From Escherichia coli (lineage in GTDB: Bacteria; Pseudomonadota; Gammaproteobacteria; Enterobacterales; Enterobacteriaceae), in assembly GCF_003790525.1 (NCBI RefSeq), contig NZ_CP033635.1: a stretch of 64,000 nt of DNA; one strand, given 5' to 3'. Below, piece by piece: positions 13,835-56,626 of this stretch; the first letter of the stretch is position 1; the number at the start of each line of letters is the position of its first letter. Both the position numbers and the translations under genes were made by a program. The notes under the pieces are model-generated. The model saw nothing but the letters and a program-made list of their open reading frames with translations, made no database searches and had not been told where the DNA came from.

Positions 13835-13930
13835 ATGCTGGGTAATATGAATGTTTTTATGGCCGTACTGGGAATAATTTTATTTTCTGGTTTTCTGGCC
13901 GCGTATTTCAGCCACAAATGGGATGACTAA
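13835..13930 (+). CDS. mgtS: small membrane protein MgtS (YneM), 31 aa
   Basis: MLGNMNVFMAVLGIILFSGFLAAYFSHKWDD with RBS GGAGG; followed by a hairpin terminator. Confidence 0.8.
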   Translation: MLGNMNVFMAVLGIILFSGFLAAYFSHKWDD

Positions 13931-13985
13931 TGAACGGAGATAATCCCTCACCTAACCGGCCCCTTGTTACAACTGTGTACAAGGG

Positions 13986-14100
13986 GCCTGATTTTTATGA
14001 CGGCGAAAAAAAACCGCCAGTAAACCGGCGGTGAATGCTTGCATGGATAGATTTGTGTTTTGCTTTTACGCTAACAGGCATTTTCCTGCACTGATAACGG
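13986..14100 (-). ncRNA. mgrR: probable PhoP-regulated sRNA MgrR (boundaries approximate)
   Basis: minus-strand intrinsic terminator (CCGCCGGTTTACTGGCGG + U8, about 13986-14012) and upstream PhoP-box-like direct repeat GTTTAA-N5-GTTTAA (14137-14154); known locus between mgtS and dgcZ. Confidence 0.45.
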
Positions 14101-14148
14101 ATCGTTGACACAGTAGCATCAGTTTTCTCAATGAATGTTAAACGGAGC

Positions 14149-44157: not shown

Positions 44158-44322
44158 ATGGCAAAGCCGATCATCACGCTCAATGGCCTAAAAATCGTCA
44201 TTATGTTGGGAATGCTGGTCATTATTCTCTGCGGTATCCGTTTTGCCGCCGAGATCATCGTGCCGTTTATTCTCGCATTATTTATTGCTGTTATATATAA
44301 CTTATTTCGCTTAACTAATTGA
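44158..44322 (+). pseudogene. tqsA: tqsA 5' fragment (first ~45 codons, then foreign tail and stop) cut by the inserted element
   Basis: [45 protein letters not shown] then IYNLFRLTN*; the rest of the gene resumes at 55720. Confidence 0.85.
44286..44294 (+). repeat. left copy of 9-bp junction direct repeat TGCTGTTAT (candidate att core/overlap)
   Basis: identical 9-mer at 55720-55728; flanking bases differ on both sides. Confidence 0.6.
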
Positions 44323-44365
44323 TTTAATTAAATAATTTGCACTACAAAAAGTGCCAAAAATCGCA

Positions 44366-44391
44366 AATTAACTACACCATTAACTACACCG
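44366..44391 (+). repeat. left copy of 26-bp direct repeat AATTAACTACACCATTAACTACACCG (tandem 12-mer; candidate integrase arm-type sites)
   Basis: exact copy at 55567-55592; followed in both copies by a related ACAACGTG(G/A)AACAA motif. Confidence 0.6.
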
Positions 44392-45466
44392 TTCGGCGCA
44401 CTGTATGAAACAACGTGGAACAAATAGACACAAGCGGCAGGCTATACCGTTATCATTTTTCAGCTATCCGTCATGAAGCTGGTGGATGATCACGGATAAC
44501 CAGGCATCTACAGCGCCTTAAAAAGCTGAACCCGACAAACATTTCTGCTTATCGGGTCCGATCGCTCTTTCTACTCGTGGCAGATGAGTTTACTAGGAAG
44601 GGGGGAACATTGTATCAGGCTATCCCCTTTCTGTGCTGATTCGGCTGGTGAATGATCTACTTGGGGCACTACACTTTTCGGATAGTGCGGGTATCCGGTT
44701 TTCTGCCTCATCGAATTTTAAGCCTTCTGACGGCCTGTATATCATTTCCTGTGGAGTTGCCGCCCTGATAGCGAATACTGCGGCAGCATGTGATTTACCC
44801 CCCGTTCTGTTGATGTTTGATGTGGCTGGTTGATGTGCTGCCATGTTTTCCGCCAATGGTGGAAAAGCCCACCAGCGCAACGCAGGACGCATAAAACCAT
44901 TGCGATGACTCTGGACGCAAAACCACGTTTAACGATGTTTTGCACTGAACCAGAATACTGTTCGTTTTTGTCTCGATGTCCGTACGTATTACGTCCGCAC
45001 CTAATCCGGCATCATGCCCACCAGCGTAACGCATTTTTTTAATTTCGTGGCTGTGCGTCCACCAGCTACGCCGGAATGGGGTATTCCGTTTCAACGGAAC
45101 AGGTATGACGAACATAATCGCACCTTCTCCCGAAAACGGTGCGACCTGCATCATCGAAATGGTGATTCAGCTACTCGGCGATTTTCACCATTCAGAATCT
45201 GGCGGGTGAGTTATCCAGCTTCCACCAATGGGGGATTCTGGAACAATCAACGGGTTACGCCTTATCAGCAAAAAAGCACATCAACTGTAAAGGAAATCGT
45301 TATGGTTGCTGGTGGGCTGCGTCACCATCATGGTGATGATGCTGTCCAGTCAGCCGGAACGGTTGAACAGGGTGGCTATGGGTCACTCTGTTGTGCGTTA
45401 TTTGCGTGATCCTGGTACGGGGTGACTATCTTTCAGATAGTCGGTTGCCTGGTTACACGAAAAAAT

Positions 45467-45769
45467 TTACTTCCTGCGTTTATCCTGCTTTGTATGCCCG
45501 TGCTGAATGCCCCGCAGTGGATCTTCTTTTTTCAGGTCGATCCCCATGTCCGTTAGTGTTTTTGTGGCGGCGGTTCTTATGGCACAAATCAGGTCTCTTT
45601 CCGGTTCCCGGGTTATGGTTGCCTTCCGGATGCATGCCGTTCGTCGTTCCGTTACATACTGACGCGCTTCATCACTTGCCGCCTGTTTCAGTAACTCACC
45701 CCAGCGATTAGCCGCCCGTCGCCATAAACCTTTCGCTTCCAGTTCTTCCGCTTTGTCATCATGCACCAT
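45467..45769 (-). CDS. ANR-like small regulator, paralog 2 (start at MVHDD.. assumed)
   Basis: MVHDDKAEELEAKGLWRRAANRWGELL... parallels the protein at 49352-49624. Confidence 0.55.
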   Translation of the reverse strand: MVHDDKAEELEAKGLWRRAANRWGELLKQAASDEARQYVTERRTACIRKATITREPERDLICAIRTAATKTLTDMGIDLKKEDPLRGIQHGHTKQDKRRK

Positions 45770-45883
45770 AAGCATAATCCCATTGATACCTGTTAACTCT
45801 GAATGGTTGGTTTCTGTTCTTTTGATAATTTCCCGCATAGCTTATTGTATGACAGTACTGTCCCACAATAAGGAGTTGCACGC

Positions 45884-46174
45884 ATGAGAATGACTAGGCA
45901 CAAAAAACAGATTCTTGAACTCTACAAACCTGAGTATCGCGATTGGGTGCGGGTGGAGGCCGGAGATCCGCCTTTTGATGTTCGTGGTGTGACAGTGCTG
46001 CTCTATGGTTCCGAATATCGGCGATATCACATAGAGGCAACACGAAGGACGCTAAACGCTATGGTTCGTGATAAGTTGCTGGAGCGTGTGAAAGTCCGTG
46101 AGCCACGTTTTGATGTGCGTATTGGTGGCGATGGTGCGCATTGCACGGTAATCCGCTATGGCCTGGTAAGGTAA
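45884..46174 (+). CDS. hypothetical protein (96 aa), divergent from the ANR-like gene
   Basis: ORF with upstream AGGAG-like RBS; no recognisable family. Confidence 0.4.
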   Translation: MRMTRHKKQILELYKPEYRDWVRVEAGDPPFDVRGVTVLLYGSEYRRYHIEATRRTLNAMVRDKLLERVKVREPRFDVRIGGDGAHCTVIRYGLVR

Positions 46175-46276
46175 GCCATCGGGTAAATCAGATGATTAAA
46201 TCACCAGAATGTAAATTTACATTCTGCCAGCCACCAGCTACCCTCCTCAAAATTGAGGACCCTTTTTATCAACTGG

Positions 46277-46558
46277 TTACCGCCGCAACCGTTCCGGCTT
46301 CTTCCACTGATAAGTGTTTTTCGCGCTCTCCTGATACATCGCCACGCGTCGACGGTATGCCAGCAACTCTAGTACTCTGATTCGTATGTCGCGCATATCC
46401 ACGCCGTTAAGCTCAATACCATCACGGCGCATTACATCAGCAACAACACGCACATAATTTTCGGCGGTCACGCTGTCCGGCTGCGTGGCCTGTTCGTCAT
46501 GCTGCTGGCTGATTCCGGTAACGCGGCGGATTAATCCCAGTAGTTCGACTTCTGTCAT
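46277..46558 (-). CDS. hypothetical protein (93 aa) adjacent to cos copy A; start taken at internal Met
   Basis: MTEVELLGLIRRVTGI...; the longer ORF 46277..46756 would read through the cos site and is judged an artefact. Confidence 0.4.
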   Translation of the reverse strand: MTEVELLGLIRRVTGISQQHDEQATQPDSVTAENYVRVVADVMRRDGIELNGVDMRDIRIRVLELLAYRRRVAMYQESAKNTYQWKKPERLRR

Positions 46559-46570
46559 TGTGCCCCCATC

Positions 46571-46648
46571 GCTCTGATAGTCTGGTGTCGTCGGGTCCTT
46601 TCCGGCATGTGGACCCGTTACGGGGCGTCGACCTCGCGCGTTTTCACT
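46571..46648 (+). other. lambda-like cos site copy A (cosQ-cosN-left-arm homology); cosN-like 12-mer GGGCGTCGACCT at 46602-46613
   Basis: GGGTCCTTTCCGG...GTTACG GGGCGTCGACCT CGCGCGTTTTCACTATTTATGAAAATTTTTCGG closely matches the recalled lambda cos junction (lambda cosN GGGCGGCGACCT). Confidence 0.75.
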
Positions 46649-46664
46649 ATTTATGAAAATTTTT

Positions 46665-46775
46665 CGGGATCCATGTCCGGTTTCTCTGCAAGTTAACCAT
46701 ATGAAAAATATAAAAACATGCTTTCCATGAACCGGACATGCGCAAAAAACAGACACTAAAACCGGACATCGAACC
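46665..46775. repeat. three CCGGACAT motifs in alternating orientation next to cos copy A (candidate cosB-like terminase-docking sites)
   Basis: ATGTCCGG near 46671, CCGGACATG near 46729, CCGGACATC near 46763. Confidence 0.45.
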
Positions 46776-46837
46776 AGTTAACCGAAAGTGTGCACAAATC
46801 ACATTCATTGCTGCGAGTGATTAACAAGTTATCGGCT

Positions 46838-47272
46838 TTACTGTTCTGTATCGGCTGATTGCTCCATGCTGGCACGGCGAACGCTTACGGCATGACGCCA
46901 CCCAGCCAGAAAGCCAGCCATTTTATTTCGTGCCTTGCTCACATCTTCCGGTGAATAGCCGTAAATATGCAAACCTTCATCAAATCGATGTTCTGTTTCT
47001 TCACTGGAGTACTCGTCACGCTCAGATGAAAGCAGCCTCGCAAACATAATTTTTTCCAGCGCACTGGTTTCTACGTGATATCCGATGGTCTGAAGATGGC
47101 TTTTACCTGAATACCAAAGCAATGTATGCCCGATGTGATAACCGCCAGACTTTCCGCGATCCGCATTAAGATACGGCATCCCCTGTTTGGTCCATGCGCG
47201 AATAGTGGTTCTGTTAACCTTGAAATGTTCAGCTATTTCCTGCTGACTTACAAAACAAGCTTTATCAATCAT
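46838..47272 (-). CDS. Nu1-like small terminase-type DNA-binding protein (wHTH N-terminus, divergent C-terminus); possibly a packaging-redirection factor
   Basis: VSQQEIAEHFKVNRTTIRAWTKQGMPYL aligns with lambda Nu1 VNKKQLADIFGASIRTIQNWQEQGMPVL; 144 aa versus 181 aa for Nu1. Confidence 0.65.
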   Translation of the reverse strand: MIDKACFVSQQEIAEHFKVNRTTIRAWTKQGMPYLNADRGKSGGYHIGHTLLWYSGKSHLQTIGYHVETSALEKIMFARLLSSERDEYSSEETEHRFDEGLHIYGYSPEDVSKARNKMAGFLAGWRHAVSVRRASMEQSADTEQ

Positions 47273-47334
47273 AATGTTACCTTAACTGCATGGTTAAATA
47301 TCAATCAAGTGGTGGTGGTGTCACCTTCACGGAA

Positions 47335-47405
47335 AAACGTCATAAATAGCGAAAACGTGCGAGGTCGACGCCCCGTAACGGGTCCACATGCCGGAAAGGA
47401 CCCGC
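47335..47405 (-). other. lambda-like cos site copy B, inverted relative to copy A; cosN-like 12-mer (reverse complement) at 47362-47373
   Basis: reverse complement reads GGGTCCTTTCCGGCATGTGGACCCGTTACG GGGCGTCGACCT CGCACGTTTTCGCTATTTATGA; lies about 70 bp upstream of the terS-like start in the lambda cosN-to-Nu1 orientation. Confidence 0.7.
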
Positions 47406-47428
47406 AAAAAAAGCCGGATTTCTCCGGC
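47406..47428 (-). terminator. intrinsic terminator after the capsid/decoration genes
   Basis: minus strand GCCGGAGAAATCCGGC followed by U7. Confidence 0.65.
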
Positions 47429-47502
47429 CTTGTCTCAGATGGTTTTCAGTATGCGATAGATGTCGCCGTCATCGCCCTGGTTTGTGCCATCGTTCCCCCT
47501 GC

Positions 47503-47838
47503 TTATCGGGCCAGCGGCTGAACGGATACGCCGGAACCCGCAAAGGCGGCGCATTTTTTCGCATCGGTGTCGACGCTCTCAGGCCAGTTAACGGCGGCAA
47601 TATTGAATATCCCCGTCTTGTAACACTGTGCTGATTTCTGCTTTGACGTGTCCACAGGGTACGAGGTCAGATAAACAGCCTTGCCAGATTCCTTACCATC
47701 CCACGCCTTAAACTCGCCATTGTCTGCCAGCATCAGCGGGGTAAATTCCTGAATAACGCCAGCATCAGCGGCAAAATGTACCAGCGTCGTGGATACCTGT
47801 TGGCTGCCTGAAAATAACTCAATGTATGGAGCGTCCAT
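47503..47838 (-). CDS. lambda gpD-like head decoration protein
   Basis: TPLMLADNGEFKAWDG and AFAGSGVSV match lambda gpD TPLMLDTSSRKLVAWDG and AFAGTAISIV; 111 aa. Confidence 0.8.
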   Translation of the reverse strand: MDAPYIELFSGSQQVSTTLVHFAADAGVIQEFTPLMLADNGEFKAWDGKESGKAVYLTSYPVDTSKQKSAQCYKTGIFNIAAVNWPESVDTDAKKCAAFAGSGVSVQPLAR

Positions 47839-47849
47839 AGAATCCCCCG

Positions 47850-48905
47850 TTAAGCAATTTTGACGGTAACAAATTTGCGAATATCTGCCGGTACAGGCTG
47901 CGGTGCGCTGTGCGTCTGCACGTACTCAATCGCCGGATCGCCGTCCTCAATCCAGTTTTTCGGGTAGTACATGTTTTGCGTTGCGCCCGTTCTTACCGCT
48001 TCCTGATCCATAATCGCACCATATGCCACCAGCCCTTTATTGTTGGTGTTACCCAGGACCAGCAAATCAGGCTCAAGGAAATATTTTTCGGTCCCGTCGC
48101 TGTCAGTGTATTTGCCGGAATAGACGATAAGGGCCAGATCACCAAGATAGCCTTTAAAGCTCACCACTTCGCCCAGGTTTTTACAGGCCAGCTCGGCGGC
48201 GGATTCTGATCCACGGGAAAGATCGTACAGTTCACGGAATTTTTTAAAGCTGCGTAATGTGCGCCATACCTCACCGCCCATAATCATGACGTTGGCGGGG
48301 CAACCTGCCTGATCAGCATAAAGCTCGATGTCATAGATTGGGTCGTGCATGTCTTTATCCTGCTGGGACCATTTTTTACCACTGGCCTGCTGTATGATGC
48401 AGTTTTCCGGTATTTTCCAGTCGATTTCATAGCGTTCTATGCCTTCGCCCTCAATGATGTTTTTTCCGGTCGTTACCGCATTCACCGCCAGCCATTCCAC
48501 GCGCGCCTTAATGGCGTTTATCTGGCGGCGCATGTTGCCAGTAATCAGGCGCATACGGCGGTAAGTTGGATCGTTAAGCTGTGCCGGATCTTCTCCATCC
48601 ATGCGCATGATGGTCTTTGTTGGATCGATTTCGTGCTTTGGCTTCATGTAGCCTGGTTTAATCGTGCTGGTTTCGTACCCTTTATCGCGCTGGACCTGAC
48701 TACCCACCATAGGAGAACAGAACGCTGACATCGTAACCTCTTCAATGTCCAGGGTGTCCAGCATGATGTTTTGGGTGTTGAAGGTCGCCACGTTCGGGAA
48801 AAACAGCGTGGTAAACAGCGGACTAAATTTATATTCCGAAATATCCCCGCGATTCAGGTACGCGAAAAGCTGGTTAGTTGTAAGTGCCTTTGCTTTGCCT
48901 GTCAT
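47850..48905 (-). CDS. lambda gpE-like major capsid protein
   Basis: 351 aa; KPGYMKPKHEIDPTKT, DPTYRRMRLITGNMRR and YPKNWIEDGDPA...SAP...FVTVKIA align with lambda gpE along the whole length. Confidence 0.85.
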   Translation of the reverse strand: MTGKAKALTTNQLFAYLNRGDISEYKFSPLFTTLFFPNVATFNTQNIMLDTLDIEEVTMSAFCSPMVGSQVQRDKGYETSTIKPGYMKPKHEIDPTKTIMRMDGEDPAQLNDPTYRRMRLITGNMRRQINAIKARVEWLAVNAVTTGKNIIEGEGIERYEIDWKIPENCIIQQASGKKWSQQDKDMHDPIYDIELYADQAGCPANVMIMGGEVWRTLRSFKKFRELYDLSRGSESAAELACKNLGEVVSFKGYLGDLALIVYSGKYTDSDGTEKYFLEPDLLVLGNTNNKGLVAYGAIMDQEAVRTGATQNMYYPKNWIEDGDPAIEYVQTHSAPQPVPADIRKFVTVKIA

Positions 48906-49111
48906 TATTCACCTCCGTGAACCTGATTGATACCCAGCGCCGCACGCAAATAGGTGCGCACCTGCCAGCCTGTTGACGGCTCAACCATCGCCAGCGGATC
49001 AAGTCCTGCCGCAATGCCTGCTTTTACATTCTGCTGGTGGCGTTCCTTGAGCGCCTCCACGATGTCGGGGCTTATGTAGACCGTCACCCCGCCTTTTTTC
49101 TCTTCTGCCAT
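48905..49111 (-). CDS. hypothetical 68-aa protein translationally coupled (TAATG) to the capsid gene
   Basis: stop overlaps the gpE-like ATG; first gene of the capsid operon. Confidence 0.5.
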   Translation of the reverse strand: MAEEKKGGVTVYISPDIVEALKERHQQNVKAGIAAGLDPLAMVEPSTGWQVRTYLRAALGINQVHGGE

Positions 49112-49145
49112 AGTCAGAAATTCCTCTTTGACTTAAAAAATCATA

Positions 49146-49163
49146 ACTGGATGTTCATCCAGT
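49146..49163. promoter_or_regulatory. perfect palindrome ACTGGATG-TT-CATCCAGT upstream of the capsid operon (candidate operator/activator site)
   Basis: 8-bp arms with 2-bp spacer, about 35 bp upstream of the first operon ATG (49111). Confidence 0.4.
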
Positions 49164-49322
49164 CCTGATTATAATCATGATTGCATTTTGCGCAACAATA
49201 TTGAGTTACGTTGCAAATTATGAAATGATTATCCCGATCATGTGTGTCAGTTCACCATAAAAAACCTCGTATACAAAAGCCCCATAAGCCCCCTGTGACC
49301 TTATCGGGCTTTTTTTAGGCGT

Positions 49323-49344
49323 AAAAAAGCCGGATTGCTCCGGC
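49323..49344 (-). terminator. intrinsic terminator after the ANR-like gene (same stem family as 47406-47428)
   Basis: minus strand GCCGGAGCAATCCGGC followed by U6. Confidence 0.6.
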
Positions 49345-49351
49345 TGTGTGC

Positions 49352-49624
49352 TCACTTCTGCGGGTAGTTGCGCCATATTGCTTTGCCAATACCAGCTATC
49401 CCCATTTGTTTTTCAGTGCGATTAACTGACCTTTTCAGAGCGCCTAAATCATCCGGCGGCTCCGGTGGCCTCTGTGCCTTACGGATACATTCCGCGCGAC
49501 GCATTGCCACCTGTTCGCGCTCCTTGTCTGTCTCCACCAGCCTCATAACTTCACCCCATCGCGCCGCCGCCCTCCGGTAAAAGCCTTTTGCCTCGAGTTC
49601 CTCCGCTATGCGGTCATGTACCAT
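49352..49624 (-). CDS. ANR-like small regulator, paralog 1 (start at MVHDR.. assumed)
   Basis: MVHDRIAEELEAKGFYRRAAARWGEVM...; longer ORF start would overlap ssb. Confidence 0.55.
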   Translation of the reverse strand: MVHDRIAEELEAKGFYRRAAARWGEVMRLVETDKEREQVAMRRAECIRKAQRPPEPPDDLGALKRSVNRTEKQMGIAGIGKAIWRNYPQK

Positions 49625-49634
49625 CGTCACCCCC

Positions 49635-50045
49635 TCAGAACGGAATATCATCACCGTAAGGGTCATCGCCTCCCGCTGGTGGCTGATTACCCTGTGTGCC
49701 TGTGGTTTTGCGTCTGTTCCCGCCAGGACGTGCCGCACGGGCACTGATTACGCTGTCTGCAATAACCTGCCAGCCCTGCCGCGTTTCCCCGTTCTGTCCG
49801 GTCCACTGGCTGACCTGCATCGTGCCGGATACGCTGGCAACGTCGCCTTTTTGATGTTTAGCCAGAAAGTCGGCCTGTTTGCCAAATGCGATGACCGATA
49901 ACCATAACGTCGCCTGTCCGTCCTGTGCCTGGCCGCATGGTAAAGATACCGCCATACGCGCCAGCGTCATCGGTGTACCCTTACTGGTCTGTTTTACCTG
50001 CGGGTCGTCCACCAGCCGCCCGTAAGCTGCTATCTGTGCTGTCAT
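49635..50045 (-). CDS. single-stranded DNA-binding protein (SSB-like OB fold with acidic DDIPF tail)
   Basis: 136 aa; C-terminal ...DPYGDDIPF typical of SSB; Gly/Pro-rich linker. Confidence 0.75.
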   Translation of the reverse strand: MTAQIAAYGRLVDDPQVKQTSKGTPMTLARMAVSLPCGQAQDGQATLWLSVIAFGKQADFLAKHQKGDVASVSGTMQVSQWTGQNGETRQGWQVIADSVISARAARPGGNRRKTTGTQGNQPPAGGDDPYGDDIPF

Positions 50046-50284
50046 GCTGTCTGCTCTCCGGTTTTAACGTTGATGGTTGTTACCTGTTCTGCTTCGGCAA
50101 TATCCCGCTCTGTCAGCGTGGCAAAGTTTGCCGCCGTCGTTGTCATGAATGCGCTTATCAGTTCGGGATGTGCTTTCGCGTATCCTTCCCCTGTGTTGCG
50201 GTCGATGATTTTTATCGCCACCCTCAGCCAGTGCTCTGTAAGGTCAATGGCGCGGTGATCTGTCTTTTTGTGGCTTACCTTCAT
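50042..50284 (-). CDS. hypothetical protein (80 aa)
   Basis: ORF overlapping the ssb start (coupled); no recognisable family. Confidence 0.45.
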   Translation of the reverse strand: MKVSHKKTDHRAIDLTEHWLRVAIKIIDRNTGEGYAKAHPELISAFMTTTAANFATLTERDIAEAEQVTTINVKTGEQTA

Positions 50285-50287
50285 GAT

Positions 50288-50611
50288 TTACTCCAGAGTA
50301 CCGCTATTGCTGCTGTCGTTAACCGGATACCAGGCAAATACCATCGATTCACCACAGTGAACAAACTTCTTATCCGGCAGATAAAGGCACTCGCACATTC
50401 CCTCATCAGGACTATGCGGACTCATGCCCAGCTCACTGGTCAGCACGGGTAAGATTTCGCGGCAGGTGTTCCCCGCACCGAAATAATCAACCTCACAAAG
50501 CGCCCATGCAGCAATCGGGCTGTACCATTCCGTGCCGTCGTCGTCTTTGAACTTAGCCCACCAGCCAGGAAGGGCAGTTGATATGCTCAGTGTTTCAATT
50601 TCAGTGTTCAT
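50288..50611 (-). CDS. hypothetical protein (about 107 aa; start uncertain)
   Basis: ORF 50288..50656 with internal Met; Cys-rich, no recognisable family. Confidence 0.45.
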   Translation of the reverse strand: MNTEIETLSISTALPGWWAKFKDDDGTEWYSPIAAWALCEVDYFGAGNTCREILPVLTSELGMSPHSPDEGMCECLYLPDKKFVHCGESMVFAWYPVNDSSNSGTLE

Positions 50612-50659
50612 AAATTTACCTTCGGTATTTTGTCCTGCTGTTCGATTTTTATTCATTGC

Positions 50660-50870
50660 TCACCATCTCTCACTTTTACTACTCACTTTTTAAAGCGTCT
50701 CGCTTCGTCTCACTTGAGATTTTTGTGTTTTGTATGTGCATGTTTCATAAGTGTTTTTTCACTGCTCACTTTTGAGCATGTATACAGGTGAGAAAGTGAG
50801 TAATTGTGTTAATATTTTGTAAAAACCTCACCATTACTCACTTTTACTACTCACTTTTTACAGTGGTCCT
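50660..50870. repeat. iteron array (CTCACTT heptamers, two 24-bp direct repeats) - candidate replication origin of the element
   Basis: at least 6 direct and 2 inverted CTCACTT copies between 50669 and 50856; CTCACTTTTACTACTCACTTTTTA at 50669 and 50839; directly 3' of the primase-helicase gene. Confidence 0.6.
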
Positions 50871-52264
50871 ACATCATCACCATCAATGTAAATCACGGCG
50901 TCTTTTTCCAGTTTGGCTAACCATCGCCGCATATTTTTCACGTCATACCCAAGCCGTTTCATGTCATCACGTAACAGCGGGATCGTGCACTTGTCGCCGT
51001 TCTGTGTGCGTGAACGGATGCACCCCCATAGCGCGGTATGGTTTTCCGTCTTGTTGCCTGCCTCCTCGATGCGCTCCAGTTCAGCAGGGGCGCGGGGAAC
51101 GTCAATCACCACCATGGACACAATTTCTTCGCCATCTGTATCGGTGAACACCTCCACGCTTTTAAGGTCGTATGCACTCTCTTTTGGCTCCTCTGCGTCC
51201 TTCATCTTCGTACACGCCGCAACCAGTGCTGTAACGTCTGAATTTTCCCTGCTGATTCGGTACTCTGCATCAAGCGCGGCACGGAATGCACTGGAACCAC
51301 GCGCCCCCTTTGTTTCATCCTTGCCGGAATGGTGAACCACCAGCACCGTGGCCCCTGTGGCCTGCTTTATCGCGTCACACCCCTGGATAAATGCGCCCAT
51401 ATCACGGGAATCATTTTCATCATTCCCACCAAAGCAACGGGCCAGCGTGTCGATCACAATCAGCCGCACATTTTCGCCCGTTCTGCTCTTAACAAGTCCG
51501 GCAGTCCTGATAACCTGCTCCACATAGTCAGGCGATGCAGGGAAAACAGGCGCGTTAATGATGCACAAATCTGTAACCACCTTGTCGTGGGTTATCTCCC
51601 ACGCCTTAACGCGGCGTTTTACGCCCATGCTGCCTTCACCAGCGATATAGATAACCGCACCCTTACTTACCCTGCGGCCTCCCCATGCCATACCTGTGGC
51701 AACATGGCACGACCAGGAAATGGCGAGGAACGATTTATAAGAACCGCTGGCCCCGTAGGTGCTGCATAATGACTCAGCCGGAATAAGCCCCTTAATGACG
51801 TAGCTTTGCTGCGCATCGAATCCCTCAGAACCCCATGAGATGGGAAGTGTGATTTTTCGCTTTCCGCCATTCATGACCAGGCTTTCCCCTCTCTCCCATG
51901 TTTCCCGTAGTCGTGGTAGCTGGTCGCTCCAGTCCTCCAGCAGTTCGAAATTTTCAGAAAGTAGCCGCGCCTCCTGGACTCCGGCGATCGCCAGTTTTGT
52001 GGCAATGGTCAGCATCTGCATATCGTCCAGGTTTCCGGCGCGTATGACCTTTACCCTGTATCGTCCTTCATCAACAATCTGTAAGTTGTCCAGTTCGCTT
52101 AACTGATAACGGCCCAGATAAACCGGAGGGATGGGATCGCCTGCTTTTTTGGCCTGTGCAATCATGTAATGTTCTGCAAAGGAGTGAGCATTATCACCCG
52201 CAAAAATAACCGCCTCAGTGTGTTTATCTTTCGGTAACAGTTTTACGTTCGGTGCAAGTTTCAT
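50858..52264 (-). CDS. replication initiator: primase-associated N-domain + RecA-like/AAA helicase (pri-rep type)
   Basis: 468 aa; Walker A GASGSYKS, Walker B LIVIDTL, VLVVHHSGKD; C-terminal wH-like tail. Confidence 0.8.
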   Translation of the reverse strand: MKLAPNVKLLPKDKHTEAVIFAGDNAHSFAEHYMIAQAKKAGDPIPPVYLGRYQLSELDNLQIVDEGRYRVKVIRAGNLDDMQMLTIATKLAIAGVQEARLLSENFELLEDWSDQLPRLRETWERGESLVMNGGKRKITLPISWGSEGFDAQQSYVIKGLIPAESLCSTYGASGSYKSFLAISWSCHVATGMAWGGRRVSKGAVIYIAGEGSMGVKRRVKAWEITHDKVVTDLCIINAPVFPASPDYVEQVIRTAGLVKSRTGENVRLIVIDTLARCFGGNDENDSRDMGAFIQGCDAIKQATGATVLVVHHSGKDETKGARGSSAFRAALDAEYRISRENSDVTALVAACTKMKDAEEPKESAYDLKSVEVFTDTDGEEIVSMVVIDVPRAPAELERIEEAGNKTENHTALWGCIRSRTQNGDKCTIPLLRDDMKRLGYDVKNMRRWLAKLEKDAVIYIDGDDVGPL

Positions 52265-52548
52265 TTCTTACCCCCTGCGACCAGCATTTCACGGATTTTG
52301 CGGATATAACTTGCAGCACGTTTCTGATTAACGGCTTTACGATGGCCCACCAGCGTGAAATCACGCCGGAACTGATAAACAGGCATAACGCAGTCATATT
52401 CGTAGCCTTCACGGCGGTAAGTGATGCGACGTTCCTCCACGCCCTTAATCATTACCGTGCCGCCGTAGTTATCACGGAAAATATCGCCGGGACGGATTTC
52501 AGGACGAGCGGGGCCGCTGGCATTAACGCCAGAATTTTTATTTTTCAT
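52261..52548 (-). CDS. hypothetical protein (95 aa) translationally coupled to the replication gene
   Basis: stop overlaps the downstream start; basic protein. Confidence 0.45.
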   Translation of the reverse strand: MKNKNSGVNASGPARPEIRPGDIFRDNYGGTVMIKGVEERRITYRREGYEYDCVMPVYQFRRDFTLVGHRKAVNQKRAASYIRKIREMLVAGGKK

Positions 52549-52553
52549 GTTTT

Positions 52554-52781
52554 TTATTCTCCGGTGTGCTGTTCTTTATATCTGTCGTGAATTGCCATCA
52601 CTGTATTTAATTCATTAATAACAGCCGTTAATAGCGTACGCACGGCAGAAAACATCATTGAATCAGATTCATCGCCACTTTCCTGCACATCAATTAAATT
52701 AAGTAGTAATGCGTCCATTTCCTTTGCGCGGATTAATGCCTTTTCACAATGAAAAATAACACCAAAGGGTATTTTATTCAT
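52554..52781 (-). CDS. hypothetical protein (about 75 aa)
   Basis: ORF with internal Met start; first gene after the divergent operator region. Confidence 0.4.
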   Translation of the reverse strand: MNKIPFGVIFHCEKALIRAKEMDALLLNLIDVQESGDESDSMMFSAVRTLLTAVINELNTVMAIHDRYKEQHTGE

Positions 52782-53056
52782 GACTCCCCTCCTGACGGAT
52801 ACGGGCGGCGAATACAGCGACACAACCGGACGGGCAACGGTTACGCGCTTCGCGTTCCGTCCAGGCGGTCACGTGGATAATTTGAGATTCTCCGGCACTC
52901 AGTGCCAGAAAACGCCACACAAAGGCGGTTTGTGTGTGCGCTAGTCGTGGGGTATGCTGTGTTCCAGCCATAATCGTTACTCCTGTTAACGGTTTGGTTA
53001 GACGCCCTGCATGTGTTACAGCACTGCGGGGCGTTGTCTTTTTAACGGCTTTCGTG

Positions 53057-53104
53057 ATAGGGTGTACACCTATCAAGCAAAAACATAACGCTATAGGTGT
53101 ACAC
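53057..53104. promoter_or_regulatory. two TAGG(G)TGTACAC palindromic operator-like sites immediately upstream of the RHH gene
   Basis: ATAGGGTGTACACCTAT at 53057-53073 and ATAGGTGTACAC at 53093-53104, ending at the ATG. Confidence 0.6.
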
Positions 53105-53299
53105 ATGTCAACAGTTATTAAGCGAGATAAAAAACCAAAGGGAACAGGAAAAGCCCCCCCATTCCATATGCGAATAGCTCCAGAACTGAAAGAGCAGTTT
53201 GATAATGAGGCCAGCAATGATGGGGTAAGCCTAGCCAACTGGCTTAAAGAGTTGGGGCGCGCCGAACTAAAGCGACGCGGCATTGAACCTAAAGGCTGA
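53105..53299 (+). CDS. ribbon-helix-helix (CopG/Arc-like) DNA-binding protein, 64 aa
   Basis: beta-strand/helix pattern PFHMRIAPELKEQF...SLANWLKELGRAEL typical of RHH regulators/antitoxins. Confidence 0.6.
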   Translation: MSTVIKRDKKPKGTGKAPPFHMRIAPELKEQFDNEASNDGVSLANWLKELGRAELKRRGIEPKG

Positions 53300-53302
53300 T
53301 GT

Positions 53303-53428
53303 ATGACTGAAAAGCAGACCGATAACAAACTTTCTCTACCAGAGAATAAACCAGCAGGCTTCTTACCAAGAAAAATCCTTGATGAGATCAAACGCCGCCA
53401 GCGCCGCAAGGCCAAAGAGCAGGAATAG
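53303..53428 (+). CDS. small basic ORF (41 aa) immediately downstream of the RHH gene
   Basis: ATG 4 nt after the RHH stop; product MTEKQTDNKLSLPENKPAGFLPRKILDEIKRRQRRKAKEQE. Confidence 0.3.
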   Translation: MTEKQTDNKLSLPENKPAGFLPRKILDEIKRRQRRKAKEQE

Positions 53429-53752
53429 CCCACCAGCAAGCCAGCACACTGATCACATTGGCCACCGTGACAGGTGGCCTTTTCTTTGCCCGTTATCCGG
53501 CAATTGTGGCGCTTCGCCACACGGTTGATATAATTCCCCTGCTCAGATTCATTTTTTGCGCGGCAGGTAAATTGTTCAGAAAGGCGGCTCCTTATCGGGG
53601 CCGCTTTTTTTATGTCTGAAAAACCGCGATTTTGTTGTTTTTCAGTTTCACCAGGCCGAACGAAGCCCCGCCCATGTTCGGGCGTATATCCAGTCTTCAT
53701 GGTTAAATCTCTGTATTAGTGGATGGGTGGCGGCTGTGTGCCGCCAGTCTTT

Positions 53753-53941
53753 TTAGTGAACTGCCTCGCAGCTTTCCTTCCATGCCAGAACTTCGGATAA
53801 AGACCAGCCAACGGAACGACCGCCCAGCTTACGCCGTGATGGGAATTGTCCGGCCTTTTCCAGGCGGTAGCGGCATGAGCGGCTAAGGCCTGTTAGCTTT
53901 TCGCATTCTTTTTCACGTATAAAGCGATCAGTGCTTAACAC
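53753..53941 (-). CDS. alpA: AlpA/Vis-family phage regulatory protein (excisionase-like)
   Basis: 62 aa; ...IREKECEKLTGLSRSCRYRLEKAGQFPSRRKLGGRSVGW... typical AlpA fold signature. Confidence 0.8.
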   Translation of the reverse strand: MLSTDRFIREKECEKLTGLSRSCRYRLEKAGQFPSRRKLGGRSVGWSLSEVLAWKESCEAVH

Positions 53942-54315
53942 TATTGCCCCCTTTCGTTTCTTAAAGAGTTATTTCGTGTTCTATTGCGTTGGGATGTGTC
54001 TGATTGTGTCAGGGTGATTCAGAGTTGGCAAATGTTGGTGGCGGGTATTTTACAGAAACGGGGTGATTTTAATAAAAATCATTTTAATTCAGTATTATGC
54101 AAAGGCATAAAATCTCGTTTTATGCCTTTTTTCTCACTATTTAAAGCGTTATTCGCTAATGTATAAAAAACCAGTTGAGCATTAAAAATCAGCAACTTAT
54201 AAATCTGTATACTTTTTGACCTCTTGTTCGTGGTTGTTTCACGTTGTTGTGTATTGTTGCACGTTGTATCTGTGCACTTATCCAGTATGCGCATACTGAA
54301 AAAACACGAAAAAAA

Positions 54316-55566
54316 TTATTTTCTTCTGGCTACTGGTAGCGTGGTTACGTTTTCATGTGCTCCCGCCAGTATCTCCAACCGCTCCACCCACATATCCAGC
54401 GCATTGCGTTTCGCATCCAGATAACGGGAATGATTATAAACTCGCTGCATTCCTGGCATCTGGTGGCCTGTAAGCTGCTCCACGACGTGAGGATCCACGC
54501 CTAAATCGTTCAGCATCGTTGTAAAGGTGCGCCGGATGTCATGCAGTGACCATTGAGGGTGTTTTAGCCTCCTGTGCGCTAATCTGCCGTACTGCGATAC
54601 GCTGGCCTCCTGTTTCACTTCCCCCAGTAATAAGCCCGTGTGCCTGTTCTGCTCCACCAGCCGCGTGACGAACGGCAGGATCGCTTCCGGTATGGGCCGG
54701 AATATTGCGACCTTCGTTTTGCTGTGCTCCTTCGGAACGGTCCAGAGCATTTCCGTGAAATCCCACTCCCCGATCTCCGATAACCTCAGTTCTACCGTCC
54801 TGGCTCCGAAGACAATCAGGAGGCGGATTAGTGCGACGTAGTAAGGGGAAAATATTTTTTTGTCCAGTGCCTGCAATAATTCGCCCAGTTCTTTGGTGCT
54901 TAAGACACGTTCGCTTATATCCGGTTTTTTCCCAACGTCCGCCACGTTCAGATCGTCCAGAACGTTGCTGATTGCATAGCGCCGCCTCCGGCAAAACTTA
55001 AGCGCCTGTTTGCACGCCTGTAGCACGAATCCGGCAGTAACAGGCGTTCGCTTTGCCACCCGATCAAAACAGGCCAGCCAGTGCCGTAGCTCGCATTTAT
55101 CCAGCGGCATAGCACCAATGTGCTGTATTACGTGATTATTAAGTCGCCTTTTCAGGGCGATATAATCCACGCGGTTTTCCTTTACGTAAGACTCAAGCCA
55201 GTAGGTGAGCGCATCTCCAACCGTTACAGGCTTTAACGCTTCCTGCATGGTGTAATTCATCTCATGACGTGGATTTTTCCCCTCAGCCAGCCATGCGCGA
55301 CACTGGGCGGCTTTTTCCCTGGCTGATTTCAGGCTCAGATCAGGATAATTTCCCAGCTTAATACGTTCCGGTCGTGTCTCTCTTCCCGTTCCGGCCCTGT
55401 AAGTGAAATACCAGGTTAAAAGGCCGCTGGTTGAATGCCTGACGCTCAGATTTCCACCGTCATTAAGAAAGGCTGTTTTTTGGGCGGGTGTGCCGTTGAT
55501 TTTCCTTAGCTGTGTATCGCTCAGCTTGTTAAGTGCTCTGGTCATAATTTTGAATCCGGTCATCAC
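54316..55566 (-). CDS. int: tyrosine site-specific integrase (P4-type)
   Basis: 416 aa; C-terminal catalytic region with ...HDIRRTF... and ...LTGHQMPGMQRVYNH... (R..H..R..Y). Confidence 0.88.
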   Translation of the reverse strand: MMTGFKIMTRALNKLSDTQLRKINGTPAQKTAFLNDGGNLSVRHSTSGLLTWYFTYRAGTGRETRPERIKLGNYPDLSLKSAREKAAQCRAWLAEGKNPRHEMNYTMQEALKPVTVGDALTYWLESYVKENRVDYIALKRRLNNHVIQHIGAMPLDKCELRHWLACFDRVAKRTPVTAGFVLQACKQALKFCRRRRYAISNVLDDLNVADVGKKPDISERVLSTKELGELLQALDKKIFSPYYVALIRLLIVFGARTVELRLSEIGEWDFTEMLWTVPKEHSKTKVAIFRPIPEAILPFVTRLVEQNRHTGLLLGEVKQEASVSQYGRLAHRRLKHPQWSLHDIRRTFTTMLNDLGVDPHVVEQLTGHQMPGMQRVYNHSRYLDAKRNALDMWVERLEILAGAHENVTTLPVARRK

Positions 55567-55592
55567 AATTAACTACACCATTAACTACACCG
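55567..55592 (+). repeat. right copy of the 26-bp direct repeat AATTAACTACACCATTAACTACACCG
   Basis: exact copy of 44366-44391, directly upstream of the int start codon. Confidence 0.6.
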
Positions 55593-55719
55593 ATCGTTGC
55601 ACAAAGGGCTACAACGTGAAACAAGCTGGAACAAGAAAAATCACAAATTTGTTTATAATCAAAAACATAATGCACAACCTGAAACATTATGAAACGGCAA
55701 AAAACACTAATTGATAAAG

Positions 55720-56626
55720 TGCTGTTATTCTTAACCCGCTGGTGCAACACATGGTCCGCTGGCGAGTGCCGCGTGTACTGGCGGTGTCGATTTTGATGAC
55801 CATCATCGTGATGGCGATGGTGTTGCTGTTAGCTTATCTGGGTTCCGCGCTCAACGAGTTGACGCGGACGTTACCGCAATATCGCAACTCTATTATGACG
55901 CCGCTGCAAGCGATTGAACCGTTGTTGCAACGCGTAGGGATTGATGTCTCAGTTGACCAACTGGCGCATTACATTGATCCGAACGCGGCAATGACGTTGC
56001 TCACCAACTTATTGACGCAGTTATCTAATGCCATGTCATCAATCTTTTTATTGCTGCTGACGGTGCTGTTTATGTTGCTCGAAGTGCCACAATTGCCCGG
56101 AAAATTTCAGCAAATGATGGTGCGTCCGGTTGAAGGGATGGCGGCGATTCAGCGTGCGATTGACAGTGTGTCTCATTATCTGGTGCTGAAAACAGCCATC
56201 AGCATCATCACCGGCCTGGTCGCCTGGGCGATGCTCGCCGCACTCGATGTTCGCTTCGCTTTTGTCTGGGGATTGCTGGCCTTTGCGCTTAATTACATCC
56301 CTAATATTGGTTCAGTTCTCGCGGCAATCCCCCCTATCGCTCAGGTACTGGTGTTTAATGGCTTCTACGAAGCGTTGCTGGTGCTGGCGGGATATCTGCT
56401 AATTAATCTGGTCTTCGGCAATATTCTGGAGCCGCGCATCATGGGACGTGGGCTGGGGCTTTCCACATTGGTGGTATTTTTGTCGTTGATTTTTTGGGGA
56501 TGGTTGTTAGGACCGGTGGGTATGCTGCTTTCCGTGCCGTTAACAATTATTGTCAAAATTGCGCTTGAACAAACAACGGGAGGTCAAAGCATCGCCGTTC
56601 TGTTAAGCGATCTCAACAAAGAGTGA
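55720..56626 (+). pseudogene. tqsA: tqsA 3' fragment (about 300 codons) downstream of the inserted element
   Basis: in-frame continuation ...[26 protein letters not shown]... after a stop codon at 55715. Confidence 0.85.

Follow-up and report, generated by a model that had tools for sequence, protein, structure and literature searches.

An Arc-like ribbon-helix-helix protein as a candidate repressor on head-on promoters of an EcCICFT073-like phage satellite in Escherichia coli

In the phage-inducible chromosomal islands (PICIs) of Gram-positive bacteria (SaPIs), the island repressors Stl and Rpr are transcribed against the replication and packaging operon (PMC6092414). In Gram-negative PICIs, AlpA is the known activator, a global repressor has not been identified, and helper-phage induction and transfer are known for EcCICFT073 (PMC6092414). 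Here we analyze a 64,000-nucleotide (nt) stretch of the Escherichia coli contig NZ_CP033635.1 (hereafter, the window) that carries, judging by its gene content, an EcCICFT073-like PICI, and focus on a gene of this phage satellite that encodes a 64-amino-acid (aa) ribbon-helix-helix (RHH) protein. We consider it probable (roughly 0.6) that this protein is an Arc-like repressor and the cis-acting switch of the island, a role that fits the published statement on the missing global repressor of Gram-negative PICIs (PMC6092414). The likeness to Stl would be functional, with no homology: the Stl-type repressors are large helix-turn-helix proteins inactivated by helper proteins, whereas here a 64-aa RHH protein is combined with an AlpA activator.

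Among the described repressors, the protein most resembles Arc of Salmonella phage P22 (immI), an RHH dimer of similar size with a basic N-terminal arm, which is its best match by both profile and fold. Arc is encoded by the first gene of the operon that it represses and acts where opposed promoters overlap, features that would be paralleled in the window, and in the Arc-operator complex, the bases are contacted by Gln9, Asn11 and Arg13. The two systems differ in that Arc occupies one 21-base-pair (bp) operator as a tetramer, whereas the window contains two separate 10-bp palindromes 35 bp apart; furthermore, the start codon of the RHH gene forms part of the opposing -35 element, the host is a phage satellite, and at least 10 operator specificities occur within one family. 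CopG of plasmid pMV158, which is among the fold matches, is likewise a tiny RHH protein that represses the promoter of the operon it heads through a palindromic site. CopG, however, controls plasmid copy number via one promoter, whereas two opposed promoters and a satellite life-cycle operon would be controlled here.

The locus comprises two small plus-strand genes, two candidate operators, two predicted promoters and a terminator:

53105-53299, plus strand: gene for the 64-aa Arc-like RHH regulator (ATG at 53105, TGA at 53297-53299; open reading frame (ORF) translation)
53303-53428, plus strand: orf41, gene for a 41-aa basic microprotein (ATG at 53303, TAG at 53426-53428)
53059-53073, no strand assigned: candidate operator O1, with the 10-bp perfect palindrome GGTGTACACC at 53061-53070 as its core
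53093-53104, no strand assigned: candidate operator O2, ATAGGTGTACAC, abutting the RHH start codon
53055-53063, plus strand: predicted rightward promoter P_R, extended -10 TGaTAGGGT, start predicted near 53070
53111-53082, minus strand: predicted leftward promoter P_L, -35 TTGACA at 53111-53106, 18-nt spacer, -10 TATGTT at 53087-53082, start predicted near 53075
53460-53488, plus strand: intrinsic terminator of the RHH-orf41 transcript, GGCCACC-GTGACA-GGTGGCC followed by TTTTCTTTG (terminator scan)

Profile searches and structural models concur that the RHH gene product (MSTVIKRDKKPKGTGKAPPFHMRIAPELKEQFDNEASNDGVSLANWLKELGRAELKRRGIEPKG) is an Arc-type RHH protein. It matches PHROG 228, 'Arc-like repressor' (E 6.9e-6), and a 23-member family profile searched against PDB retrieved P22 Arc as the best hit (E 1e-3, residues 12-59), with Mnt and MazE7 weaker; nothing significant was found in NCBIfam or PADLOC. 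Although the identity to Arc is only about 25%, the Arc profile alignment pairs kGtGkaPaFkiRispeL with KGMSKMPQFNLRWPREV, the shared motif being PxFxxR(I/W), and the basic N-terminal arm of 18 residues aligns with the DNA-contacting arm of Arc. Structure prediction, which had been proposed as a check when the gene was first noticed, yielded an Arc-like strand-helix-helix arrangement with AF2: the monomer model contains helices at residues 26-38 and 43-57 (pLDDT 80, about 90 in the core), and in the single-chain dimer model (pTM 0.66), the only two strands are residues 19-23 of each half. Both these strands were scored as strand or bridge by DSSP, consistent with antiparallel ribbon pairing in the predicted dimer. 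Foldseek ranked Arc at the top, followed by NikA, CopA, AmrZ, ParG and CopG, with probabilities up to 1.00. The RHH family is conserved from E. coli to Pectobacterium, Yersinia and Xenorhabdus.

The first-pass annotation, which was made from the sequence of the window, had placed two palindromes centred on GTGTACAC upstream of the RHH gene, and both sites are indeed found, at 53061-53070 and 53097-53104. The octamer itself occurs only twice in the 64-kb window (53062-53069 and 53097-53104), against an expectation of 0.64 copies per window after dinucleotide shuffling. Including their flanks, the copies make up an inverted repeat with perfect 12-nt arms, GTGTACACCTAT / ATAGGTGTACAC, that are separated by 19 nt; both sites are framed as GGT-NNNN-ACC, with their centres 35 bp apart. 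For comparison, a one-genome-per-species scan gave 52 loci; after loci from E. coli, Citrobacter and Salmonella had been added, the analysis covered 49 RHH genes of about 20 genera (individual loci are cited by L numbers). Across these 49 loci, the 70 nt upstream of the RHH start follow the same fixed plan. In 47 of the 49 loci, the 11-nt sequence located at -41 to -43 differs from the reverse complement of that at -11 to -1 at no more than 3 positions, whereas the best match of random 11-mers has about 5 mismatches; the pairing of O1 and O2 is therefore not due to chance. O2 keeps AGGT (-10 to -7) and AC (-2 to -1) across loci, with a 4-nt centre that varies. Three further matches to the idealised operator TAGGTGTACACCTA, each with 3 mismatches, lie in island coding regions (48951-48964, 49970-49983 and 51141-51154); with 1.2 such matches expected in the whole window, they probably occur by chance.

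Both candidate operators are embedded in predicted promoters. O1 overlaps the end of the rightward -10 element and spans approximately +2 to +13 of the leftward promoter, and the last two bases of the extended -10 of P_R are the first two bases of site 1. When anchored on O1, the six fixed positions of TGnTAnnGT are each invariant in 44-46 of the 46 non-identical loci. O2 fills the 18-nt spacer of P_L and includes the Shine-Dalgarno (SD) sequence of the RHH gene, AGGT. The start codon of this gene is backed by the conserved N-terminus MST and by the invariant (A/T)TGTCAA (48/48 related upstream regions), in which TGTCAA consists of the TG of an ATG or TTG start, a Ser codon that is always TCA, and the first base of codon 3. 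On the opposite strand, TGTCAA reads TTGACA, with TAnnnT 18 nt further, the key positions of which are kept in 77-88%; in the promoter scan, P_L matches 10/12. The invariance at synonymous positions points to a function at the DNA level, that is, a leftward promoter. The predicted starts of P_R and P_L (about 53070 and 53075, respectively) put the two promoters face to face, overlapping completely. We checked for the geometry of a master repressor, and O2 lies in the spacer of P_L and O1 at its start; the promoters are predictions, and their elements are conserved.

The central tetranucleotide of the operators follows RHH residues 19 and 21 without exception in the 49 loci:

residues 19 and 21 P and H: centre GTAC, 5 loci
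residues 19 and 21 Q and R: centre GACC/GGTC, 6 loci
residues 19 and 21 Q and K: centre GGCC, 6 loci
residues 19 and 21 H and K: centre GGCC, with the flanks symmetrically changed to GGG...CCC, 3 loci
residues 19 and 21 T and Q: centre ACGT, 21 loci
residues 19 and 21 A and Q: centre ACAC/ACAT, 4 loci
residues 19 and 21 I and S: centre CCAT, 1 locus
residues 19 and 21 L and N: centre CTAT, 1 locus
residues 19 and 21 M and P: centre ATAT, 1 locus
residues 19 and 21 P and Q: centre AATT, 1 locus

O1 and O2 always change jointly with the protein residues. When the protein is aligned to Arc through the P-x-F-x-x-R motif, the variable residues 19 and 21 fall on Gln9 and Asn11, and the invariant Arg23 on Arg13. 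From this covariation, we infer that the RHH protein is an operator-specific repressor of its own promoter and of the leftward icd/replication operon.

That operon belongs to an island of about 11.4 kb (about 44297-55731) inserted in tqsA; both halves of tqsA are present, with the core GCTGTTAT at both junctions. The island encodes int, alpA, an icd-like protein, orf89, DUF4222, a RepA-type helicase, ssb, PerC, the major capsid protein and a head decoration protein. Three of these genes, on either side of the RHH module, are:

52774-52971, minus strand: icd-like (host cell division inhibitor) gene (NCBIfam NF033153, E 4.9e-18)
53753-53941, minus strand: alpA-family gene, convergent with the RHH operon (PHROG 2790/66, excisionase and transcriptional regulator; RefSeq)
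54316-55566, minus strand: tyrosine integrase gene at the right end of the island (ORF and RefSeq annotation)

All island genes are on the minus strand except RHH and orf41. The RHH gene had been singled out as the only plus-strand gene of the regulatory core, which holds for the protein genes, with int, alpA, icd-like, DUF4222 and the helicase all read from the minus strand. The icd-like gene is the first gene of the leftward operon that the predicted P_L would drive, followed by orf89, DUF4222, the RepA-type helicase, ssb, PerC and the capsid genes. With int and alpA at one end, a co-oriented replication module and late genes, its size and its site-specific insertion, the element has the attributes of a PICI; the gene set of EcCICFT073, recovered from the CFT073 genome, equals that of the window island, and a near-identical island is present in E. 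coli CM2, the source of the gene annotation. The att core GCTGTTAT is situated within tqsA, and a 26-nt direct repeat, AATTAACTACACCATTAACTACACCG, is located just inside both island ends (44366-44391 and 55567-55592) and may represent arm-type sites of the integrase.

Under the proposed mechanism, RHH dimers would insert a two-stranded β-ribbon into the major groove at O1 and O2, the two 10-bp GGT-NNNN-ACC sites, with residues 19 and 21 reading the central bases together with the invariant Arg23. Binding at O1 would cover the P_R start point and the tail of its extended -10, and binding at O2 would fill the P_L spacer. Given that P_R and P_L would fire head-on over about 5 bp, RNA polymerase could engage only one of them at a time. 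Occupied operators would close both promoters, so that autoregulation would keep the RHH protein scarce and the leftward operon would not be expressed while the island is integrated. AlpA, induced by a helper phage, would have to override or bypass this block, either by activating the leftward promoter or through transcripts that start at the alpA promoter and read on across the convergent RHH unit. The product of orf41 would be made from the RHH maintenance transcript.

Comparison with related islands indicates that the regulatory region is exchanged as a unit:

53037-53383, no strand assigned: exchangeable regulatory cassette containing both promoters, both operators, the RHH gene and the first 27 codons of orf41

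The island of E. coli PKF11 is about 98% identical to that of the window on both flanks (52400-53036 and 53384-54000) and unrelated in between, where a 261-bp segment encodes a 59-aa YlcI/YnfO-type RHH-like protein (WP_000190587.1) with repeats of its own. EcCICFT073 carries WP_000190587.1 in this slot, too. By visual reading of the PKF11 sequence, one copy of GTGGGCCACACC lies in the spacer of a leftward TTGACG-18-TATAGT promoter and another right after the -10, so that, at the sequence level, the same geometry as in the window appears to have been reached by an unrelated sequence. The PKF11 swap implies that the regulator, the operators and both promoters move as one unit, with the regulated genes staying in place. 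The YlcI/YnfO proteins (DUF3950) resemble the RHH protein of the window in occupying the same slot in EcCICFT073 and the near-identical island, in having their own repeats around the leftward promoter, and in sharing their last 14 codons with orf41. They differ in that there is no detectable homology to the N-terminal RHH part, their repeats form three direct copies where the window has an inverted pair, and the basic tail is part of the regulator itself.

A 41-aa basic ORF had been described as trailing the RHH gene by 4 nt; this ORF (MTEKQTDNKLSLPENKPAGFLPRKILDEIKRRQRRKAKEQE) is real and net basic, but the gap from the RHH stop to the orf41 ATG is 3 nt (TGT), and orf41 is in the RHH frame. 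Homologs of 40-48 aa are found in E. coli, Citrobacter, Salmonella and metagenomes, making up only 8 representative clusters among 1.84 billion proteins, and share the conserved core N-K-x-x-G-F-L-P-x-K-x-L-x-E-x-K/R-x-R-Q-R. Pairwise dN/dS values against 6 homologs range from 0.07 to 0.59, with dS up to saturation, which argues that orf41 is a real microprotein gene under purifying selection. The product is hydrophilic and has no match in PHROG, NCBIfam, PADLOC, Pfam or PDB. The similarity of its tail to the arginine-rich motif of λ N (E 0.09 in a single comparison) is a lead only.

The arrangement of orf41 behind a small gene is constant. In 11 of 11 loci, an orf41-type ORF starts in frame 3 nt after a stop codon, which is TGA in 10 loci and TAG in one, distant locus. 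The preceding gene encodes an RHH protein in 8 of the 11 (Arc-like in the window, L005, L007, L061, L062, L068 and L070; DUF3950 in L069), and in L006, L008 and L064, it is another small ORF that carries the last RHH codons, ...(E/Q)(P/K)KG. Conversely, orf41 follows the RHH gene in only 5 of the 49 RHH loci, the other 44 being followed by unrelated cargo or nothing. The last 14 codons of orf41 are 91-100% identical at the DNA level to YlcI/YnfO-type genes, in which this tail is fused to the RHH domain, and positions 53384-53466 of the window are 91-100% identical to the 3' end of these genes. A possible SD sequence of orf41, AAAGG, lies within the last RHH codons (53291-53295), and translational coupling through it is the simplest account of the constant in-frame spacer; stop-codon read-through is less likely because one locus uses TAG. 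The orf41 gene is probably co-transcribed with and translationally coupled to RHH, and its product most likely acts as an accessory partner of RHH regulators or else is cargo carried independently in the maintenance transcript. We also considered orf41 as a decayed remnant of a displaced YlcI/YnfO gene and rejected this, given that homologs with less than 50% identity keep the ORF and given the dN/dS range.

The choice posed by the first-pass annotation was between a repressor of the element and an antitoxin-toxin-like pair stabilising the island. Of the two, we favor the repressor, because of the Arc-like fold, the operators on two opposed promoter cores and the one-to-one covariation, and the pair does not stand. 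A pair in which RHH is the antitoxin and autorepressor and orf41 the toxin would be in keeping with the gene order, the 3-nt coupling and the autoregulatory operator, all of which resemble type II modules, with the position of orf41 always directly behind a small RHH gene or its 3' end, and with the RefSeq name of the 64-aa protein, 'toxin-antitoxin system HicB family antitoxin' (the 41-aa ORF is the hypothetical protein WP_000136964.1). However, the two genes are not inherited as a pair: 44 of the 49 RHH loci lack orf41, and absence of the small ORF from related elements is the very finding that had been named at the outset as refuting the idea. The RHH protein has only about 7 residues after helix 2 in the dimer model and no toxin-binding extension, whereas orf41 matches no toxin or defence family, and its tail, fused in frame to a YlcI/YnfO-type regulator in many genomes, is hard to square with a toxin. 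As to the HicB antitoxins, the similarity is weak and restricted to their C-terminal RHH part; the 64-aa protein lacks the N-terminal HicB domain with its RNase H-like fold, and there is no hicA-like ORF in the ORF list within 50000-56500 of the window. The antitoxin name is, in our reading, an over-extension of a weak match of a DNA-binding domain, and an addiction pair is scarcely tenable. A single gene, in which RHH and orf41 form a 106-residue RHH protein with a basic C-terminal tail, split by a recent nonsense mutation or by a TGA that is read through, appears very unlikely as well. The shared frame and the single codon between the stop and the ATG (11/11 loci) would suit it, as would the covalent joining of the tail EIKRRQRRKAKEQE to the other RHH type in the 59-aa and 101-aa YlcI/YnfO-type proteins. 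But a stop is present in every locus, which rules out a recent mutation and for which reason this candidate was rejected, and the RHH family ends at the same residue, in ...EPKG, in 44 loci with unrelated downstream DNA and with TAA, TGA or TAG stops; moreover, orf41 has its own ATG and a well-spaced SD sequence, and a UGA stop with U as the next base is not known to be leaky in E. coli.

A more serious alternative, albeit one that we also find unlikely, is that the RHH protein is a local autoregulator of a small accessory ('moron' or defence) unit, here orf41, and does not control the replication and packaging operon. The slot downstream of RHH is highly variable and contains defence-type genes in other genera, immune systems at the 5' end of PICIs have been reported (PMC11364771), and replication genes are missing from the fetched flanks of some loci. 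For autoregulation alone, however, O1 would suffice, whereas O2 is placed between the -35 and -10 of a leftward consensus promoter, at whose start point O1 lies and whose -35 does not vary even at synonymous sites (48/48); furthermore, the regulator and both promoters are swapped as one cassette without movement of the leftward genes. Several observations weigh against a repressor that switches the whole island. Over-expression of AlpA alone induces EcCICFT073 (PMC6092414), such that the RHH block would be overridable and perhaps not the master control. The 35-bp spacing of the sites corresponds to about 3.3 helical turns, a non-integral number with which Arc-style cooperativity of side-by-side tetramers cannot apply. 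Four loci (L022, L026, L054 and L057) adjoin defence cargo and a gene for a 176-aa protein (see below) and have no recognisable replication genes in the fetched flanks; at these, the module may regulate local cargo only, and several distant loci look like cargo-associated remnants. The 49 loci are related by descent, so that locus counts overstate independent events, the number of independent specificity switches being nearer ten than 49. Finally, the Foldseek E-values are weak, the protein being tiny, and the Pfam match is a weak one to HicB (PF05534, residues 20-48 only, E 0.006). The repressor reading retains our preference at the probability given above.

Upstream of P_R, a candidate antisense small RNA (sRNA) unit was identified on the plus strand:

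52930-53044, plus strand: candidate antisense sRNA unit with a -35-like TTGTGT at 52930-35, a -10 TATGCT at 52953-58 and a start at about 52966

The predicted start is an invariant A at 52966, and the approximately 79-nt RNA derived from it would be complementary to the SD sequence and start codon of the icd-like gene. Every locus contains the hairpin that lies at 53002-53034 of the window, with many compensatory changes in it, and in most loci, as in the window, a T-run comes next. Because its stems are too divergent, RNAalifold on a plain MAFFT alignment missed this main hairpin and was replaced by folding of each sequence on both strands, in which the hairpin is more stable as plus-strand RNA in 43 of 43 loci, by 5.5 kcal/mol on average. 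A plus-strand TAnnnT is kept in 42 of 43 loci, 11-16 nt before the complement of the start codon of the first leftward gene, and sits inside differing coding sequences; a small hairpin around the anti-SD covaries. These features suggest that the antisense RNA may provide a second, post-transcriptional lock on the leftward operon. The candidate would resemble SymR of the SymR/SymE system: a transcript of about 79 nt from the plus strand would begin across from the start codon of a gene with toxic potential, here icd-like, cover the SD sequence and end in a terminator. The full-length SymR match (52966-53038) is weak, however: at 24.7 bits, it is below the gathering score and far from the Rfam threshold, and the target is unrelated to SymE.

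In the search for RNA families, only STnc560 reaches the threshold in the window, and none does in 52700-54300; this Hfq-binding sRNA (280 bits, 13924-14137, minus strand) is outside the island. The C4 and isrK immunity RNAs of the P4 type found in L006, a related island with an ash-family pseudogene, are absent from the window. In L006, both lie at 1477-1665 on the minus strand (C4, 80.9 bits; isrK, 59.6 bits; P4 CI-type immunity RNAs), between icd and a YlcI-type regulator. A minus-strand terminator-like fold within RHH codons 4-23 was rejected as its structure is inconsistent across loci.

The terminator behind orf41 has a stem of 7 pairs, 6 of them G-C, and is kept in L006, L008 and L066. 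In L002, L004, L006 and L008, a promoter-like block, TTGCCCACCAGCC-N-TATnAT, is followed after about 70 nt by the GGCCACC...GGTGGCC terminator downstream of the RHH cassette; the window retains only the terminator of this block, apparently through a deletion between similar sequences at about 53455-53465. Further downstream, a perfect extended -10, TGATATAAT (53526-34, plus strand), lies about 50 nt before a strong terminator hairpin (53585-53608) with a run of seven T. The 53526-53612 block, with a fold z-score of -3.9, is kept in L006, L008 and L066 and might either encode another small RNA, convergent with alpA, or serve alpA as a bidirectional terminator. Two more small arginine-rich families occur in the rightward operon in varying order, orf60 (L004, L005, L006 and L008) and orf55 (L061-L064), with the motifs SPARKRRRRK...ERFAPCAF and MPKLKDFLA...GRRSRKSSP; both match PHROG 21027.

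The slot downstream of RHH elsewhere holds defence-type cargo (L016, L022, L026, L057 and L003), namely PDC-S31, a 2TM effector, a TIR-domain protein and a SWIM protein, with SIR2 and a HerA-like ATPase close by. It resembles the 5' accessory hotspot of PICIs, in which immune systems have been reported (PMC11364771). In L022, L026, L054 and L057, a 176-aa protein (MANTNSTT...PRF(V/I)RTDGGL) with no PHROG or PADLOC family match replaces icd-like as the product of the first leftward gene; tblastn with the proteins of the window island was too insensitive to annotate distant loci. According to a published survey, the region separating alpA from the replication genes is dynamic and contains Bro-network genes as well as P4-type immunity RNAs; the RHH protein described here is not mentioned (PMC10111431). 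As for the annotation of the RHH gene itself, the homolog in O157:H7 strain 86-24 (L004 1566-1757), which has a TTG start, is of the QR type and has GTGACCAC operators, lacks a RefSeq annotation and is overlain by a 744-nt 'hypothetical protein' ORF on the opposite strand that we judge spurious; the same spurious minus-strand frame appears in the window as a 308-aa ORF (52774-53700).

A bolder and, in our estimate, doubtful proposal is that the RHH cassette and the antisense RNA jointly constitute the missing maintenance or immunity switch of Gram-negative PICIs, with at least 10 operator types of differing specificity that are exchanged as cassettes among islands otherwise alike, and with orf41 as a dedicated co-regulator. 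In that capacity, orf41 might contribute the basic C-terminal helix that YlcI/YnfO-type regulators carry themselves, either in trans or through read-through of the stop codon. It could thereby span the 35 bp between the two sites, for instance, or link the switch to AlpA or to the helper phage.

The protein is of a known kind, the Arc-like RHH autorepressors. In the literature searched, which included few subscription-journal papers, we found no description of such an RHH switch, of a function of YlcI/YnfO, of the microprotein or of the antisense RNA, nor of a swappable multi-specificity switch on head-on promoters in Gram-negative satellites, and no experimental data on derepression of the element upon loss of the protein or on a signal that inactivates it. 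The analysis corrects the misleading 'HicB antitoxin' database name and, at the level of sequence and models, offers a concrete repressor candidate for Gram-negative PICIs; in the model island EcCICFT073, its slot is taken by a regulator that is not homologous yet shares the geometry. If the repressor reading is wrong, the module would still be a well-defined autoregulated cargo promoter in satellites. The covariation between residues 19 and 21 and the operator centres amounts to a recognition code that is amenable to mutagenesis and could yield orthogonal repressor-operator pairs.

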